DNA from: Escherichia phage MN01
Strand: one strand, 5' to 3'
Length of the DNA: 64,000 bases
Sequence record: MT129652.1
Under the pieces are notes generated by a model. It had not been told where the DNA came from, did no database searches, and saw only the letters and a list, made by a program, of their open reading frames with translations. How positions within the stretch are numbered: position 1 is the stretch's first letter; every line of letters begins with the position of its first letter. Positions 3,817-59,685 of this stretch are shown here, piece by piece. The position numbers and the translations under genes were made by a program.

Positions 3817-4049
3817 GTATTGCAATTTATATTAAATCCGAGTCATGTGATTCTTATCTGTATTCCTATGACACTGGAACACCAGAAGAGAAAATCAAAG
3901 ATGATTTAGAAACTGATTTAGATATGTTCCGCCCGATTTCTGAATACAGAATTCAAACTTCTGATAGTGAATCTCCTTCATTGGAAAACAGACTTGAATT
4001 TTTAATGAGTGATATTTTTAACCAATCATGGAAACGTGACGATGAGTAA
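3813..4049 (+). CDS. Hypothetical acidic protein
   Basis: 78 aa; ATGA start/stop overlap with upstream gene. Confidence 0.45.
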   Translation: MSIAIYIKSESCDSYLYSYDTGTPEEKIKDDLETDLDMFRPISEYRIQTSDSESPSLENRLEFLMSDIFNQSWKRDDE

Positions 4050-4500
4050 GAAAAACAAGGTGAAAGAATTATCTGCTGGCATTATTTTCATGACTGAAGA
4101 TAAAGAGTTATTCATGGGTCGTGTGACTGGTTCTCGTAAACCAGGTATGCCTGCACACAAATGGGACATCCCTAAAGGTCATGTTGAAGCTGGTGAATCC
4201 CCGATTGAAGCGGCTATCCGTGAAACCGAAGAAGAAACCGGGTTTACTCAATACGACCCGGCATTCTTAAAGGACCTGGGCGAATTCCGTTATTCAGATA
4301 ACAAAAATCTTCACCTGTTTTTGTACACGGTTCCGGTCGAGCATGAGCAGTTCAGACATAGTAAATGCTCTGCCTATCATACCTTCCCGGATGGTAGTTC
4401 GATTCCAGAGTTCGATGCATTTGCTCTGATTAAACCAAGTCAATGGCAGTATGTGATGGGCAAATCGATGTACAAGGTACTGACTCAAATTTTCGGATAA
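4042..4500 (+). CDS. nudE: Nudix hydrolase NudE (e.1)
   Basis: Nudix box GHVEAGESPIEAAIRETEEETGF; position immediately upstream of lysozyme as in T4. Confidence 0.8.
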   Translation: MSKKNKVKELSAGIIFMTEDKELFMGRVTGSRKPGMPAHKWDIPKGHVEAGESPIEAAIRETEEETGFTQYDPAFLKDLGEFRYSDNKNLHLFLYTVPVEHEQFRHSKCSAYHTFPDGSSIPEFDAFALIKPSQWQYVMGKSMYKVLTQIFG

Positions 4501-4526
4501 TAAATACCCCTATATAAGGGGGTATT
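4497..4526 (+). promoter_or_regulatory. Late-promoter-like TAATAAATA plus hairpin sequestering the lysozyme SD
   Basis: AATACCCC (4503-4510) pairs with GGGGTATT (4519-4526); SD AGGGGG sits in the 3-prime arm; ATG at 4527. Confidence 0.5.
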
Positions 4527-5018
4527 ATGAATATATTCGAAATGTTACGCATAGATGAAGGTTGTAAGTTGGATTTGTATAAAGATACTGAAGGCTATTG
4601 GACCATTGGTATCGGGCAACTGATAACTAAGAACCCATCAAAAGATGTTGCTCGTGCCGAGCTCGACAAACTCATGGGTCGCGTCTGTAATGGTCGCATA
4701 ACCCAGCACGAAGCTGAAACATTGTTTAACCGTTCGGTCGAAAAAGCTAAAGCCGGAATCTTGAGACACCCTGTCTTAAAACCTGTTTATGATGTGCTAG
4801 ATGAAGTTCGTCGTTGTGCACTCATTAATATGGTATTCCAGATGGGTGTTGCTGGTGTTGCTGGTTTTCCTAAGGGTATGCGACTTCTGAAGTCTAAATC
4901 ATGGGAAGCAGCTGCTAAGGAACTGGCGGACTCAAGATGGTATAAAGTCCAGACTCCGAACCGAGCCAAACGAGTTATAGAAACGTTCCGTACTGGAACT
5001 TTTAGCGCATACAAATAA
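4527..5018 (+). CDS. e: Endolysin (T4 lysozyme e, muramidase)
   Basis: N-terminus [12 protein letters not shown]...[13 protein letters not shown] and [12 protein letters not shown]...PNRAKRVI closely match T4 lysozyme. Confidence 0.95.
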
Positions 5019-5026
5019 GGTAAAAT

Positions 5027-5329
5027 ATGAAAACGTATAAAGAATTTATCACCGAAGCGCGCGTAAGTGCAGGTAAATTAGAAGCCGCTGTAAATAAAAA
5101 GGCCCATTCATTTCATGATTTACCAGATAAAGACCGTAAGAAACTTGTAAGCCTTTATATTGACAAAGAGCGTATTCTAGCTCTCCCTGGCGCTAACGAA
5201 GGTAAACAGGCCAAGCCTTTGAATTCTGTCGAAAAGAAAATTGATAACTTTGCTTCTAAGTTCGGCATGTCTATGGATGACCTTCAGCAAGCGGCTATCG
5301 AAGCAGCTAAAGCAATTAAAGGTAAATAA
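5027..5329 (+). CDS. Internal head protein (IPIII/IPII-like) with capsid-targeting sequence
   Basis: Starts [11 protein letters not shown], matching the T4 internal-protein CTS MKTYQEFIAE with an I-x-E protease site; 100 aa; adjacent to e as in T4. Confidence 0.7.
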
Positions 5330-5331
5330 CA

Positions 5332-5384
5332 GTTTACTTCCACGATACGTGTGATATAATGTTCTCCTACAAACATAGGAGAAC
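5332..5384 (+). promoter_or_regulatory. Sigma70-type early promoter followed by SD-sequestering hairpin upstream of denV
   Basis: GTTTAC (5332-5337), 17-bp spacer, TATAAT (5355-5360); then GTTCTCCT/AGGAGAAC inverted repeat (5361-5384) containing the SD. Confidence 0.5.
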
Positions 5385-5388
5385 AAAC

Positions 5389-5805
5389 ATGACTCGCATT
5401 AATTTGACCCTGGTATCTGAACTTGCTGACCAACATCTTATGGCCGAATATCGTGAACTTCCTCGCGTGTTTGGCGCTGTTCGTAAGCATGTGCAAAATG
5501 GTAAAAAGGTTTCTGACTTTAAAATCCCATCATCTTTTCTTTTAGGGACTGGTCATGTCACCTTCTTTTATGATAAGCTTTTGTTCCTTAAAAACCGACA
5601 TCAAGAACTTATTGCGGAATGTTTAAAGCGAGGGTTTAACATAAAAGATATTTCTACCCAAGACTTAACTGATATTCCTGATGAATGGAAGAATGATTAT
5701 CAACCATCAATCTGGTCAATTGAAATCAGTCAAGCTAGGCTGAATGAGAAAATTTCTCAAAAGCCCGCTTGGTACAAATACTATGGGAAAGCTGTGTACG
5801 CTTAA
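5389..5805 (+). CDS. denV: Endonuclease V (pyrimidine-dimer DNA glycosylase)
   Basis: [35 protein letters not shown]... near-identical to T4 endonuclease V; 138 aa. Confidence 0.92.
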
Positions 5806-7984: not shown

Positions 7985-8443
7985 ATGACTACTATCGATT
8001 CAAGTGTTTACATTCGCCGCAATAAACTTCGTCGCATTTTTGAAACGGAGTTCCTCAAAATTAATAATGCTATCAACAAGGCTTGTAAAGAAGCAGGCCT
8101 TGAAGCATTCTTCATTAAGTACAGTCCGCACCTGTTGGACCGTGCAATCCAACGTGAAATTGATGAACAATATGTTTTTGACTTGTTTGGAAAAATCACA
8201 CCACATGTAAAAGAAATCGTTGAATTCCTGGAGATGAAACCACTCCCGGAAGTTGAAGCACAAATTGACCCGAATGTGAACTACCGTCCACTTCGTCTGG
8301 AAATCACAGACAAGAACCTGTGGTTAGGAATGACAGTTAACCCGGCTCTTCCTGGGAAGTCTCCAACCATGTGTTGTCGTATGGCGTTTGTTAACTCTAA
8401 TCGTCTGGAAGGAAAAATTAGCACAAAAGTAATTTATATCTAA
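7985..8443 (+). CDS. regB: Probable RegB-like sequence-specific endoribonuclease
   Basis: MTTIDSSVYIRRNKLRRIFETEF... resembles the remembered T4 RegB N-terminus; 152 aa vs 153 aa in T4; lies between denV and tk as in T4; AAAAGGAG SD. Confidence 0.5.
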   Translation: MTTIDSSVYIRRNKLRRIFETEFLKINNAINKACKEAGLEAFFIKYSPHLLDRAIQREIDEQYVFDLFGKITPHVKEIVEFLEMKPLPEVEAQIDPNVNYRPLRLEITDKNLWLGMTVNPALPGKSPTMCCRMAFVNSNRLEGKISTKVIYI

Positions 8444-22582: not shown

Positions 22583-22620
22583 TAATAAATACCCTTATCT
22601 AATAATGGTAAGGGTTTATT
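22583..22620 (+). promoter_or_regulatory. Late-promoter-like TAATAAATA plus hairpin sequestering the gene 49 start region
   Basis: AATAAATACCCTTA pairs with TAAGGGTTTATT immediately 5-prime of the ATG at 22621; same TAATAAATACCC motif as upstream of e. Confidence 0.5.
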
Positions 22621-23094
22621 ATGTTGTTGACTGGCAAATTATACAAAGAAGAAAAACAAAAACTTTATGATGCACAAGCTGGTAAGTGTCCAATTTGCCA
22701 CCGTGATTTGGACTCTGATGTTCAGGCCAACCATCTTGACCATGACCACGAATTGAACGGGCCAAAAGCCGGTAAGGTTCGCGGGTTACTATGCAATCTG
22801 TGCAATGGAACAGAAGGGCAAATGAAGCATAAGTTCAGCCGTTCGGGTCTGAAAGGTCGTGATGTTGACTACCTGGAATGGTTAGAGAGTTTGCTTGTCT
22901 ATCTGAAATCTGATTATACCGAAAACAATATTCACCCTAATTTTGTGACAGACAAAGCTAAAGAGTTCGGTCGCCTGGGGAAAGAAGAAATGATTCAGGA
23001 AATGCTTTTGAACGGCATGACTTATAATGAATCTGATACGAAGCCTAAACTACAAGCTTCATTTAAAAAACAACTGAGGAAATCGCTTAAATGA
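22621..23094 (+). CDS. 49: Endonuclease VII (Holliday junction resolvase)
   Basis: MLLTGKLYKEEKQKLYDAQAGKCPICHRDL...HLDHDHELNGPKAGKVRGLLCNLCN...KKQLRKSLK closely matches T4 gp49; 157 aa. Confidence 0.93.
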   Translation: MLLTGKLYKEEKQKLYDAQAGKCPICHRDLDSDVQANHLDHDHELNGPKAGKVRGLLCNLCNGTEGQMKHKFSRSGLKGRDVDYLEWLESLLVYLKSDYTENNIHPNFVTDKAKEFGRLGKEEMIQEMLLNGMTYNESDTKPKLQASFKKQLRKSLK

Positions 23095-26386: not shown

Positions 26387-26944
26387 ATGAACGAAATTAA
26401 ATTAACTAAGAATAACTATGTAAATAATAAAGAGCTTTTGAAAGCTATTTCGGAGTGGAAACAGAAGCTGAATGCGAACACCGACCCGAATAAAATTATT
26501 CGCCAGAACGATGTTATTGGTCTGGCAATTATGCTTATAGCCGAAGGTCTTAGCAAACGTTTCAACTTCTCCGGATATACCCAATCTTGGAAGCAAGAAA
26601 TGATTGCAGACGGAATTGAGGCCGCAATAAAAGGTCTTCACAACTTCGACGAAACAAAATACGATAATCCACATGCTTACATAACAATGGCTTGCTTCAA
26701 TGCTTTCGTTCAGCGTATCAAAAAAGAACGTAAAGAAATGGCAAAGAAATATAGCTACTTCGTCCATAACGTGTATGATTCACGTGACGACGATATGGTG
26801 GCTCTGGCTGATGAAACATTTATCCAGGACATCTATGACAAAATGACACAGTACGAATCCTCTTTAGTTAAAGCGCCAGGGTCTGATAAGAGCGCCAAAG
26901 ATAAAGAAGGTGATTTGGATTTTTTATATGGAACATCAATTTGA
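26387..26944 (+). CDS. 55: Late-transcription sigma factor gp55
   Basis: [16 protein letters not shown]...[40 protein letters not shown]... near-identical to T4 gp55; 185 aa. Confidence 0.93.
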
Positions 26945-31275: not shown

Positions 31276-31992
31276 TTATTGAGGCTTCATTTTGCAGTTA
31301 TCAAAATGCCAACGTTTCATATTAGCTGGCATACCGACTACATTACAGTGTGGACACTGAATTTTGGGGTCCACCTTTTTCTTCCGGTTTGGATTGGATT
31401 TGCAGAATTGTTGGTGAGTGGATATAACACACTTTTTACCTTCAAGCCCGCAAAATTCACAATTTAAAATTTCATGTTTAGCTTGTTTTAAACCTACTGA
31501 AATTTTTTGCTTTTGCTTTTCCGGAATAGTATGAACAACCTTGTTTGGACCTTTGGAACAGTTATCAAAATGCCAACGATTCATATTGCCAGCGAGACCG
31601 GTTTTTCCACAGTGTGGACATTCGACTCTCGGTTTTAATTTGGCGGATTCTGACATTTTCTTTCTGGTTTCATCGGAGAAAATTTTATTTTGTTGAGCTT
31701 CCAAGTTTTTACGACGAAGCCATCCAAATAATTTGTTTTTGCTTCTGTCGGCATTTGGTGCAGAAACTGTCATCATGCGCGCGGCATAGACCAAAGAAGC
31801 GTTATTTGGATGCATTTTGACCAACAGTTGATGGCAAACGAAATGTTCCTCGGGAGTTAAATCAACAAGATTTGAAGCGTCGTCAGCCCCACCCATACAA
31901 CGGGGTATAATGTGATGGCTTTCAGAGTATGTGGTTAATTTGCGATTCAATGCTCTGCTAATAAGCTTTTGGTAAATGATGTTATAATTCAT
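31276..31992 (-). CDS. HNH homing-endonuclease-like protein with duplicated C-terminal zinc fingers
   Basis: Only long minus-strand gene in the region; HNH core SESHHIIPRCMGGADDASNLVDLTPEEHFVCH; repeats CPHCGKTGLAGNMNRWHFDNC and CPHCNVVGMPANMKRWHFDNC; start taken at internal ATG (MNYNIIYQ). Confidence 0.7.
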   Translation of the reverse strand: MNYNIIYQKLISRALNRKLTTYSESHHIIPRCMGGADDASNLVDLTPEEHFVCHQLLVKMHPNNASLVYAARMMTVSAPNADRSKNKLFGWLRRKNLEAQQNKIFSDETRKKMSESAKLKPRVECPHCGKTGLAGNMNRWHFDNCSKGPNKVVHTIPEKQKQKISVGLKQAKHEILNCEFCGLEGKKCVISTHQQFCKSNPNRKKKVDPKIQCPHCNVVGMPANMKRWHFDNCKMKPQ

Positions 31993-32005
31993 ATCAGACC
32001 CTTGT

Positions 32006-32224
32006 TTGATACTGCAACGGATAATATTATTTATGAGCAATTTTTTAACCGGGCAGCATTTACTGGCTGTCCCTGAAATTAAACGGTATGTGTTAGTTAA
32101 TACCTTTTCGAAAGATGAACACCTTGTCACTGAACGTGACTTGCAAAACGCTTTCGGTGAAGAATATGTTAAAATAATCGCGAACAGACACAATGCCTGG
32201 TTCGCATATGAATACTTTGATTAA
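32006..32224 (+). CDS. Hypothetical protein (uncertain; 45.2 position)
   Basis: 72 aa ORF between the HNH gene and rpbA; no motif. Confidence 0.3.
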   Translation: MILQRIILFMSNFLTGQHLLAVPEIKRYVLVNTFSKDEHLVTERDLQNAFGEEYVKIIANRHNAWFAYEYFD

Positions 32225-32686: not shown

Positions 32687-33382
32687 ATGAAATTCTCTAA
32701 AGACACTATCGCAGTTCTGAAAAACTTCACTTCCATTTACTCTGGCATTATGCTTAAGCCAGGTAATACCATCCTGACTCGTTCCGTAACTGGAGCGTCA
32801 TATGGCGAATCTGAAATCAATGATACAATTGACTTTGAAGCTGCGATTTATGACCTGAACGGCTTCTTAAGTATCCTGGGCCTGGTAACTGACCAAGCTG
32901 AAGTATCTCTGGCTGAAGACGCATCAAACATCATTATCAAAGACCAACGTTCAACGATTCACTGGCCTGCAGCAGACCCGAGCACTATCGTGTTCCCTGC
33001 TAAGAAGATTCCTTTCCCGGTAGCTAAGGTTATCTTCGACCTGAAAGGTAGTGACCTGCAGCAGCTTCTGCGCGTGGCTGGTGGTTTGTCTCTGGATACT
33101 TTTGCAATCACCAACAAAGACGGTAAGATTGTTATCCATGGTTATAATCAGCTCGAAGATAAAGAGTTGGCGCGTCCATTGTATTCCCTGGTGTGTGGCG
33201 ACTACGAAGGCGATGCAGCGTTTAAATTTATCATTAACAAACTGAACATGAAAATGATTCCGGCTGATTACCGTGTTATGCTTTGGGCGAAAGATGATAA
33301 ATTTGCTACGAAGTTTGAAGGCACACAAGCAAGCTATGTGATTGCAATGGAACAAGGCTCTAGCCACGAATTCCAAGATTAA
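32687..33382 (+). CDS. 45: Sliding clamp gp45
   Basis: MKFSKDTIAVLKNFTSIYSGIMLKPG...TIHWPAADPSTIVFP...LLWAKDDKFATKFEG closely matches T4 gp45. Confidence 0.95.
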   Translation: MKFSKDTIAVLKNFTSIYSGIMLKPGNTILTRSVTGASYGESEINDTIDFEAAIYDLNGFLSILGLVTDQAEVSLAEDASNIIIKDQRSTIHWPAADPSTIVFPAKKIPFPVAKVIFDLKGSDLQQLLRVAGGLSLDTFAITNKDGKIVIHGYNQLEDKELARPLYSLVCGDYEGDAAFKFIINKLNMKMIPADYRVMLWAKDDKFATKFEGTQASYVIAMEQGSSHEFQD

Positions 33383-49649: not shown

Positions 49650-49705
49650 TTTACTTACTCCCCTCCTAATGACATAATGGTCTTTCTTACAACAGAGAGA
49701 CCATT

Positions 49706-50266
49706 ATGAACATCATCAAATCTGATACCGAACCCAACCAGTTAAAATTTAGTGAAATGGAGATAGCTTCATTATTTGAATGCCGCACATCAAAGGTTGA
49801 TAAGACCTTGCATTCAAATGTCAACTCAATCATCAAGTCAAGGTTGTCTATACCCGATACAGTCTTGTGGCGCGGAGTAACCCAGCAAGAGATTGATTTG
49901 TTAGATGAAGCAAAAGAATCAATGCAACCTTTTGAATTTGGACGGGTAACCTCCTTTACAGAAGACTATGGTATTGCCAGGGATTTTGCTGCAATGGAAT
50001 ATGTGACTAGGACTATCGTCAGATTGAATCAGACCAAAGCTTTTTGTTACCATGATGCGATGCGCAAAATCGCGCTTGACGTTCCACTGGAATTCTTCAA
50101 TACAGCTTCTGGTTCCGCCCGGGCAGCTACATTAAGGCGCGAAGAATACATGGACATGATTGATTCTGAGCTTGAATGGTTTGTTCCAGTTGACCAGAAA
50201 TTCGTGGTAGTTGACGCTGGATTTGTTGGTGATTATTATGTTCTTGACTGTGTACAAGAGCAATAA
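49706..50266 (+). CDS. ADP-ribosyltransferase, ModA/ModB-like (first copy)
   Basis: R-S-ExE triad candidates LWRGVT, TSFT, ELEWFVP; 186 aa; tandem with a paralog. Confidence 0.6.
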   Translation: MNIIKSDTEPNQLKFSEMEIASLFECRTSKVDKTLHSNVNSIIKSRLSIPDTVLWRGVTQQEIDLLDEAKESMQPFEFGRVTSFTEDYGIARDFAAMEYVTRTIVRLNQTKAFCYHDAMRKIALDVPLEFFNTASGSARAATLRREEYMDMIDSELEWFVPVDQKFVVVDAGFVGDYYVLDCVQEQ

Positions 50267-57657: not shown

Positions 57658-59490
57658 ATGATGATTAATAATGAAATTAAAGTACTCTCGGACGTTGAGC
57701 ATATCAAAAAACGTTCCGGGATGTATATTGGTTCCAGTTCAAATGAAGCGCATGAGCGATTCTTGTTTGGTGAATATAAGTCCGTAAGCTATGTTCCTGG
57801 TATTGTAAAACTGATTGATGAAATTATCGATAACTCTGTTGATGAAGCAATTCGCACCAGTTTTAAATTTGCCAATAAAATTGATGTCCAAATTAAAGAT
57901 AATCAGATTTCGGTTTCCGATAATGGCCGTGGTATTCCACAGGCAATGGTTACAGACCAAAACGGTGAACAAATCCCTGGCCCTGTTGCAGCATGGACTA
58001 TTCCAAAAGCTGGTGGTAACTTCGGCGATGATGCTGAACGTAAAACTGGCGGGATGAACGGCGTCGGGTCTTCTCTGACCAATATTTTCTCTGTATTGTT
58101 TACCGGGATTACCGCTGATGGTGCAAATGAAATCACCGTTAACTGCTCCAATGGTATGGAAAACAAATGTTGGTCGACTAAGAAATCAAAAGGTAAAGGT
58201 ACGACTGTTATATTTATTCCAGACTTTAGTCACTTTGAAGAAAATAGTCTGTCCCAGATTTATCTGGATATTACATTGGACCGTCTGCAGACTCTTGCGG
58301 TTGTTTATCCGGATATTCAGTTTACCTTTAATGGTAAAAAGGTTGATGGTAATTTCAAAAAGTTTGCCAAGCAATTCGGAACCGAAGTTGTTATCCAGGA
58401 AACTGATACAGTATCGATGGCCTTTACGACTAGTCCGGATGGTTTCCGTCAGTTGACTTATGTCAACAACATTCATACAAAGAATGGTGGGCACCACGTT
58501 GAATGTGTTATGGATGATATCTGTGAACATCTTCAACCAGCCATTAAACGCAAATATAAAGGCATTGAGGTGACCAAGGCACGAGTTAAAGAATGTCTCA
58601 CCATGCTTATGTTCATCCGCGATATGAGCAACATGCGATTTGATTCCCAGACTAAGGAGCGATTGACTTCTCCGGCTGGTGAAATTCGAAATCACATTAA
58701 GATTGATGCCAAGAAAATCGCGCAAGCTATTCTGAAAAATGAACCGCTGATTATGCCGATTGTTGAAGCTGCATTAGCCCGTAAATTGGCAGCAGAGAAA
58801 GCAGCAGAGACAAAGGCGAATAAGAAAGCTTCGAAGGCCAAGGTGCAGAAACATATCAAGGCAAACGAATGGGGTAATGATAAACTGGAAACGACTCTGT
58901 TCCTGACCGAAGGTGATTCCGCAACCGGTCCATTTATCAAGGTTCGCGACCGTGAATTGCAAGGTGCTTATCCGTTACGCGGTAAGTTCAAAAACACATG
59001 GGGTCTGAAAGCTGTTGACGTTATGAAGAACGCCGAAGCCTTTGATGTGTGTGCGATTACTGGTTTAACGATTGGACAACCGGCCGAGAATATGAATTAC
59101 CGAAACATTGCTATCATGACAGATGCGGATGTGGATGGTGTCGGTAGTATCTATCCATCGTTATTGGCGTTTTTCAGTAACTGGCCAGAGTTGTTCCATG
59201 AAGGACGAATTCGCTTTGTGAAAACTCCTGTTATTATTGCGCAGCTCAAAGATAAACAAGAATGGTTCTATTCTCTTCCTGACTATGAAGAAGCTAAGGA
59301 TAAACTTCCGAAGCACACCATCCGATATATCAAGGGGCTTGGTTCTCTGGAAGATGCCGAGTACAAACGCGTATTGCTCGAACCGGTATTCGAAGTTGTT
59401 GAATTACCTGACAACTGGAAAGAACTGTTCGAAATGCTCTTCGGTAAAGATTCCCAGCAGCGTAAAGATTGGATGAATGCGACACTATAA
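57658..59490 (+). CDS. 39: DNA topoisomerase II large subunit gp39, fused with the gene 60 portion
   Basis: GHKL ATPase motifs (IDNSVDEA, DNGRGIP, GGMNGVGSS) and C-terminal TOPRIM region in one 610 aa frame; close match to T4 gp39. Confidence 0.95.
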   Translation: MMINNEIKVLSDVEHIKKRSGMYIGSSSNEAHERFLFGEYKSVSYVPGIVKLIDEIIDNSVDEAIRTSFKFANKIDVQIKDNQISVSDNGRGIPQAMVTDQNGEQIPGPVAAWTIPKAGGNFGDDAERKTGGMNGVGSSLTNIFSVLFTGITADGANEITVNCSNGMENKCWSTKKSKGKGTTVIFIPDFSHFEENSLSQIYLDITLDRLQTLAVVYPDIQFTFNGKKVDGNFKKFAKQFGTEVVIQETDTVSMAFTTSPDGFRQLTYVNNIHTKNGGHHVECVMDDICEHLQPAIKRKYKGIEVTKARVKECLTMLMFIRDMSNMRFDSQTKERLTSPAGEIRNHIKIDAKKIAQAILKNEPLIMPIVEAALARKLAAEKAAETKANKKASKAKVQKHIKANEWGNDKLETTLFLTEGDSATGPFIKVRDRELQGAYPLRGKFKNTWGLKAVDVMKNAEAFDVCAITGLTIGQPAENMNYRNIAIMTDADVDGVGSIYPSLLAFFSNWPELFHEGRIRFVKTPVIIAQLKDKQEWFYSLPDYEEAKDKLPKHTIRYIKGLGSLEDAEYKRVLLEPVFEVVELPDNWKELFEMLFGKDSQQRKDWMNATL

Positions 59491-59517
59491 ATAGATACGG
59501 GAGAATATTCTCCCGTC
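59486..59517 (+). promoter_or_regulatory. Late promoter (TATAAATA) overlapping the gene 39 stop, followed by a hairpin
   Basis: TATAAATA at 59486-59493; inverted repeat ACGGGAGAATATTCTCCCGT at 59498-59517. Confidence 0.4.
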
Positions 59518-59532
59518 TTATAGGAGAAGTCC

Positions 59533-59685
59533 ATGAAAAAGTGGTGGGTTACGTTGTCAAATGGCGAATACGGTTATCTGTGGGCCGATACTAAACCTCT
59601 GTTTGCATCCTTTGTCACCATTATGTGCGAGACTTGGGATGGCGAATACTATACCGCATATGGGCAAGTCTATAAAGTTGAGTAG
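59533..59685 (+). CDS. Hypothetical small protein (50 aa)
   Basis: ATG after AGGAGAAG SD; Trp/Tyr rich; terminator follows. Confidence 0.3.
   Translation: MKKWWVTLSNGEYGYLWADTKPLFASFVTIMCETWDGEYYTAYGQVYKVE

Follow-up and report, generated by a model that had tools for sequence, protein, structure and literature searches.

Escherichia phage MN01 carries the T4-type lysozyme (endolysin) gene e directly behind nudE (e.1), the gene for a Nudix hydrolase. Both are found in the window analysed here, a stretch of 64,000 nucleotides assigned to Gaprivervirus, the VR7/SP18 group of T4-like phages. Around the e leader, a stretch of 501 nt is matched by 33 phage records at 90-98.6% identity. The two genes stand in the same order as in T4, on the + strand, with an intergenic gap of 26 nt that reads GGATAATAAATACCCCTATATAAGGGGGTATTATG. 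The features of the locus are collected in Table 1.

The maximal open reading frame of nudE begins at GTG 4009 (4009-4500). The probable start is ATG 4042, which gives 459 nt, the length annotated in SP18. The product of e is 67% identical to T4 gpe and has an identical N-terminus; judged by these sequences, the gene is the orthologue of T4 e. Two components of the late transcription machinery, gp55 (80% identical to T4 gp55) and gp45, are also encoded in the window, while gp33 is not among its genes. Searching the whole 64 kb window against Rfam at the gathering score matched no family, tRNA included.

Table 1. Genes and leader elements of the nudE-e region, and late transcription genes encoded in the same window
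Feature	Position	Strand	Basis or remark
nudE (e.1), Nudix hydrolase	4042..4500	+	PHROG nudix hydrolase, E = 9.6e-76; VR7 and SP18 annotations; adjoins e upstream
Outer helix, upstream strand UUUCGGAUA (end of nudE)	4491..4499	+	pairs with 4534-4542; minimum-energy and centroid fold
T4-type late-promoter octamer AATAAATA (-13 to -6, A at -13)	4499..4506	+	sequence match; overlaps 5' arm
Hairpin 5' arm AAUACCCCU	4503..4511	+	CCCC run acts as anti-Shine-Dalgarno
Predicted late transcription start, A4512	4512	+	in loop, 6 nt past octamer; inferred from T4 late-promoter geometry
Hairpin loop AUAUAA	4512..4517	+	minimum-energy fold
Hairpin 3' arm GGGGGUAUU	4518..4526	+	contains most of the Shine-Dalgarno sequence (AAGGGGGU, 4516-4523) and the spacer to AUG
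e, T4-type lysozyme (endolysin), 163 aa	4527..5018	+	ATG 4527-4529; PHROG endolysin
Outer helix, downstream strand UAUUCGAAA (e codons 3-6)	4534..4542	+	pairs with 4491-4499
Internal-protein gene	5027-5329	+	downstream of e
denV	5359-5805	+	downstream of internal-protein gene
gp55, late sigma factor	26387..26944	+	PHROG late sigma factor, E = 3.7e-68
gp45, sliding clamp, T4-type late transcription activator	32687..33382	+	PHROG DNA polymerase processivity factor, E = 9e-78

The hairpin over the e ribosome-binding site

Positions 4497-4529 read ATAATAAATACCCCTATATAAGGGGGTATTATG. Within them, a repeat finder identifies AATACCCC (4503-4510) and GGGGTATT (4519-4526) as arms of 8 nt that lie 8 nt apart and are 100% complementary, in agreement with the perfect 8-bp stem that the initial annotation had placed at the e start. 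Two details of that description need correction. The loop had been given one base too short: there are five Gs at 4518-4522, and thus the loop is TATATAAG (8 nt), or AUAUAA (6 nt) when the wobble pair U4511-G4518 of the minimum-energy fold is counted and the stem becomes 9 bp long. The stem had also been said to end 1 nt before the ATG; T4526 directly adjoins A4527, with no base between them.

The Shine-Dalgarno sequence AAGGGGG (4516-4522) lies mostly in the 3' arm and partly in the loop. It is the sole purine-rich run of its kind between the nudE stop codon (4498-4500) and the ATG, as the earlier description of the only such sequence within the 3' arm had implied.

RNA folding had been proposed as a check on the hairpin. 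The fold of the 81 nt at 4480-4560 contains it as a stem of 9 bp, together with an outer helix that had gone unmentioned, also of 9 bp, so that the AUG falls within an internal loop. Its energy is -18.4 kcal/mol (z = -2.73), and one of 200 dinucleotide shuffles folds equally well.

The cost of opening the ribosome-binding site depends on where the RNA begins. Freeing 4516-4529 is computed to take 14.4-14.7 kcal/mol in RNAs that start at 4400, 4450 or 4480, and 3.5-3.7 kcal/mol in RNAs that start at 4511-4514. When 118 non-overlapping ORF starts, with start codons chosen heuristically, are ranked by the closure of the region from Shine-Dalgarno sequence to AUG, e comes fourth at 14.7 kcal/mol; the median is 5.8 and the 95th percentile 12.2.

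Of the three starts that are more closed than that of e, two are at 7985 and 3229. The third, the most closed of all, belongs to an ORF of 186 aa (49706-50266, +) and costs 19.4 kcal/mol. In the leader of this ORF (region 49665-49708), which has no recognisable Shine-Dalgarno sequence, AAUGGUCUUUCU is paired with AGAGAGACCAUU, and the latter extends as far as the AUG.

Late-promoter octamers at e and elsewhere in the window

A T4 late promoter consists of an 8-bp TATA box that spans positions -13 to -6 (PMC1524935). A late-promoter-like motif had been noted earlier at the base of the stem, and AATAAATA is indeed found there, at 4499-4506. It forms part of TAATAAATA (4498-4506), and its first base, A4499, lies in the middle of the nudE stop codon. 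This TAA (4498-4500) is followed by a second TAA in the same frame (4501-4503) and ends 2 nt before the hairpin stem. With the stop codon and the octamer overlapping, four elements are packed into about 30 nt: stop codon, promoter, RNA stem and ribosome-binding site.

The octamer departs from the consensus TATAAATA by an A at -13. Among 50 listed T4 late promoters, 32 are perfect and 9 have this same A (PMC2988020), and T(-13) is poorly conserved among T4-like phages (PMC1524935). The A(-13) octamer is the commonest natural T4 variant and a recognised form of the late promoter. With the octamer at -13 to -6, transcription would start at A4512, and the late RNA would lack all nine bases of the 5' arm.

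On the + strand, the 2 kb that precede e hold no second octamer with one mismatch or fewer to TATAAATA, save TATGAATA, which runs across the ATG. A loop promoter like the second one of T4 was considered and rejected: TATATAAG carries three mismatches.

Over both strands of the window, the core ATAAATA is strongly under-represented: there are 9 copies, where shuffles give 22.1 +/- 5.1. For eight of the nine, an ORF start follows at a distance of 16-44 nt; the genes concerned include e, 49, an ipI-like gene (about 44991), soc (about 47548), small ORFs (about 11086 and 59533) and two ORFs of the - strand. The core thus behaves like a signal, being both depleted and placed before ORF starts.

Gene 49 (endonuclease VII; 22621-23094, +) provides a further case of the design seen at e. 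Here AATAAATA at 22584-22591 is followed by a hairpin, ACCCUUAUC...GGUAAGGGU, which is lengthened by AAUAAA/UUUAUU, contains the Shine-Dalgarno sequence and reaches the AUG (region 22584-22623). The leader has a minimum free energy of -19.4 kcal/mol (z = -2.34) and ranks sixth of the 118 ORF starts for closure. This arrangement is the known design of T4 gene 49.

Two other sites carry late-promoter-like sequences. Just upstream of gene 45, an HNH endonuclease-like ORF (31276-32193, -; MNYNIIYQKLISRAL...HHIIPRCMGG...) runs antisense to its neighbours and has CATAAATA at 32035-32028, 35 nt before its ATG. At 59486-59535 (+), a consensus TATAAATA is directly followed by the perfect hairpin ACGGGAGAAUAUUCUCCCGU, a Shine-Dalgarno sequence GGAG and an ORF of 50 aa. 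This last hairpin would stand at the 5' end of the late RNA, where it could have a stabilising effect; alternatively, it could terminate transcription of the gene upstream.

Conservation of the leader

Homologues of e are present in roughly 1,800 phage records. Scanning IMG/VR with the lysozyme protein gave 71 loci. The Tevenvirinae-type sequences number 34 (the window, T4 and the loci L002-L033) and amount to 24 distinct leaders. In 23 of these, NATAAATA (N = T, A or G) stands directly before, or overlaps, a hairpin that contains the Shine-Dalgarno sequence. For these 23 leaders, the predicted cost of opening is 12-19 kcal/mol in the long RNA and 2-8 kcal/mol in the predicted late RNA. The exception, L029, has TCTAAATA within its 5' arm, an octamer of the type used by Aeh1 late promoters, which is CTAAATA (PMC1524935).

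As primary sequence, ATAAATAC and GG.GGT are unvaried in all 17 aligned e leaders. The stem is formed in two registers, AAUACC.../...GGUAUU and CUCCUAUC/GAUAGGAG, with the spacers UAUU and CCU. In the first (window, T4, L009-L013, L031 and L033), the spacer UAUU pairs with AAUA of the octamer. In the second, the spacer stays unpaired and the stem is lengthened on the side of the loop, where CUCCUAUC pairs with GAUAGGAG; two of these leaders, L019 and L023, have replaced the loop-closing C-G pair by A-U. The compared sequences thus suggest that structure rather than sequence is kept, by a stem in two registers. An attempt to describe all 17 leaders by one consensus structure was abandoned, since the MAFFT alignment mixes the registers. 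For the same reason, covariation was counted on the six leaders of the window's register, and the others were listed sequence by sequence.

In these six leaders, 54 of 54 cells are paired. There is one double compensatory change, and two pairs vary only by G-U wobbles; 88 of 500 shuffles do as well, and the statistical case for covariation is weak. The double change is the window's own: at pair 10-27 the window has C-G where the other five leaders have U-A, and it is linked to the change of the Shine-Dalgarno sequence from GGAGG to GGGGG. Both arms are constrained in other ways as well, as promoter and as Shine-Dalgarno sequence, so part of the conservation is not evidence for structure. The CCCC/GGGG stem of the VR7/SP18 group is the only one of its kind among the leaders compared.

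Within Gaprivervirus, the leader hardly varies. The 61 nt at 4485-4545 are identical in 30 of 32 records. Nine aligned genomes, which share 81-93% identity with the window over about 1.06 kb, have no substitution at 4486-4579, while the flanks of this segment contain 4 to 26 variable columns per 60 nt. The only differences within it are loop insertions of 1 nt in TH54 and TH57, which leave the fold unchanged. The outer helix and the hairpin are common to the folds of all nine sequences.

Escherichia virus TH15 (MT446392; 765-1532, locus L073), also a Gaprivervirus, has an ORF for an HNH homing endonuclease of 251 aa between nudE and e, directly after AATAAATACA. There is no hairpin any more, the endonuclease reading frame and the e start codon overlap by 32 nt, and the late octamer now precedes the endonuclease gene. 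The N-terminus of the insert's product is similar to that of the HNH-like ORF at 31276-32193 in the window.

Interpretation and comparison with known systems

The arrangement is best explained as the Gaprivervirus version of the translational switch of T4 gene e, made up of a hairpin and a late promoter, and a probability of about 0.8 can be put on this reading. Its course can be modelled on T4, from which the read-through, the point of initiation and the influence on translation are taken. Early and in the middle period, RNAs of nudE and of the genes upstream would run on into e, because the gap is only 26 nt long and has no terminator. On such RNA, AAUACCCCU would pair with GGGGGUAUU, and the outer helix would close around the hairpin. 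The region from Shine-Dalgarno sequence to AUG would then be double-stranded, and both binding of the 30S subunit and translation of e would be poor. Late in infection, after the onset of replication, RNA polymerase with gp55, assisted by gp33 and gp45, would read AATAAATA and start at about A4512. The resulting RNA would have neither the 5' arm nor the upstream strand of the outer helix, its ribosome-binding site would be single-stranded, and lysozyme would be made.

The features that count against a switch of the T4 type include the non-consensus octamer and the missing second promoter. A literature search for transcript ends, translation data and mutants of this phage or of Gaprivervirus found none.

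The complementarity of the arms might instead be a by-product without regulatory role. The 5' arm would then be kept as late promoter and initiation region, the 3' arm as Shine-Dalgarno sequence and spacer, and the timing of e would be set by the late promoter alone. That six of the nine pairs are invariant, that the shuffle control is not significant and that ATAAATAC and GG.GGT are held as primary sequence all agree with such an account. It is nevertheless improbable, given that the stem is maintained in two registers with different spacers, that the A-to-G change in the window's Shine-Dalgarno sequence is matched by U-to-C in the 5' arm, and that L019 and L023 have exchanged their loop-closing pair. 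In addition, the e start is among the most closed of the window, and in T4 both the formation of the structure and its silencing of translation have been shown by experiment (PMC3014915). Still less probable is a role of the hairpin as a terminator or in the protection of RNA ends, whether of nudE RNAs on the + strand or of antisense RNAs on the - strand. The palindrome is flagged as terminator-like on the - strand (4521-4507, tail TATTTATTAT), but no gene of that strand converges on it, and the region has 6 terminator-like sites against 5.1 in shuffles, which is no excess. A Rho-independent terminator on the + strand was rejected: the tail AUUAUGAAUAUAUU has no U run, and the scan calls no terminator-like site on this strand of the nudE-e interval.

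Other alternatives involve the ribosome that translates nudE. In this lineage, the hairpin might serve chiefly to couple the two genes in translation: on ending at the stop codon, the ribosome would melt the 5' arm and free the e ribosome-binding site. Early lysozyme would then be proportional to nudE translation, with the late promoter as no more than a supplement. When the A site holds the stop codon, the position of the ribosomal helicase (+11 to +13 from the P site) reaches 4506-4508, which takes in six of the nine bases of the 5' arm; the last nudE codons lie within the outer helix, and the gap between the genes is shorter than in T4. Even so, coupling of this kind is unlikely. T4 has a similar though looser arrangement and yet shows strong early silencing (PMC3014915), the stem can re-form once the ribosome has departed, and the late octamer is conserved in all lineages examined. 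A related possibility, also doubtful, is that the switch has been rewired in the VR7/SP18 group. Only 2 nt separate the nudE stop from the stem, and the final codons of nudE are part of the outer helix; ribosomes that terminate there could therefore open up the start region of e and couple lysozyme to nudE on early RNA. The change from GGAGG to GGGGG would also eliminate the RegB motif. If this were true, the hairpin would tune coupling rather than impose strict late-only expression.

The T4-type switch thus remains the preferred reading, with one reservation that follows from the same geometry. Since the nudE stop codon ends so close to the stem, a terminating ribosome should melt about six of the nine pairs, which may make early silencing leaky or link it to nudE translation.

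The mechanism itself is textbook knowledge, and its conservation in relatives of T4 was already described in a review in 2010; no new mechanism is involved. What is new is a sequence variant in another genus, with one A(-13) promoter, a short loop, a CCCC/GGGG core without GGAG, an outer helix and a stop codon that overlaps the promoter. If the preferred reading holds, the T4 lysozyme switch of 1986 has been kept, with a compensatory change in its stem, in another genus of Tevenvirinae. The design of octamer, anti-Shine-Dalgarno sequence, loop and Shine-Dalgarno sequence recurs across the subfamily in two stem registers. The reach of the finding beyond annotation is small. It provides a regulatory annotation for 4491-4542, and a small natural data set on how promoter, stop codon, stem and ribosome-binding site can share about 30 nt.

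The closest known system is T4 gene e. There, long early RNAs form an inhibitory structure that lowers lysozyme synthesis 100-fold, while RNAs that start at either of two late promoters are missing the 5' portion and are translated efficiently (McPheeters et al. 1986, Nucleic Acids Res 14:5813, as summarised in PMC3014915). This is also how the initial annotation had recounted the T4 case, early RNA being silenced by the hairpin and late RNA being translated. Its further statement that the architecture appears conserved is supported by the orthology of e, the gene order, the skeleton of the leader, the position of the octamer and the opening energies.

The T4 leader reads TTTTATAAATACCTTCTATAAATACTTAGGAGGTATTATG, and its stem is formed by AAUACCUUC and GGAGGUAUU. 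Base for base, both phages have the skeleton ATAAATACC...GG.GGTATTATG. Both also have a core stem of 9 bp, a 3' arm made of Shine-Dalgarno sequence and spacer, and a late octamer that overlaps the 5' arm. Under the same protocol, opening costs 15.3 kcal/mol in the long RNA and 4.0 kcal/mol in the late RNA of T4, compared with 14.7 and 2.0 kcal/mol in the window.

The differences concern the promoters, the Shine-Dalgarno sequence and the spacing. T4 has two octamers of the consensus TATAAATA, one over the 5' arm and the other in a loop of 12 nt, whereas the window has its single A(-13) octamer and a promoter-free loop of 6-8 nt. The Shine-Dalgarno sequence is GGAGG in T4 and GGGGG in the window, where a C in the 5' arm compensates for the change. 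Through this replacement the window lacks the GGAG motif, which is a RegB cleavage motif in T4 (PMC3014915). The outer helix is extra in the window. From the nudE stop codon to the stem there are 2 nt in the window and about 10 nt in T4, and nudE and e are 26 nt apart as against 37 nt.

Close relatives of T4 have similar e leader RNAs, with a T4-type late promoter in the region that encodes the 5' strand (Uzan and Miller 2010, PMC3014915, section 29, Fig. 5A). The running text of that review and the legend of Fig. 5A do not name the VR7/SP18 group.

The same logic is found beyond gene e. In the T4 genes 49, soc, I-TevI, I-TevII, I-TevIII and segB, and in mobE of Aeh1, a late promoter lies in or next to the 5' strand of a hairpin (PMC3014915; PMC2988022). 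As would be the case for e in the window, the ribosome-binding site is sequestered on early or middle read-through RNA and freed on late RNA. These are, however, other genes with non-homologous hairpins, and I-TevI adds autorepression at its promoter.
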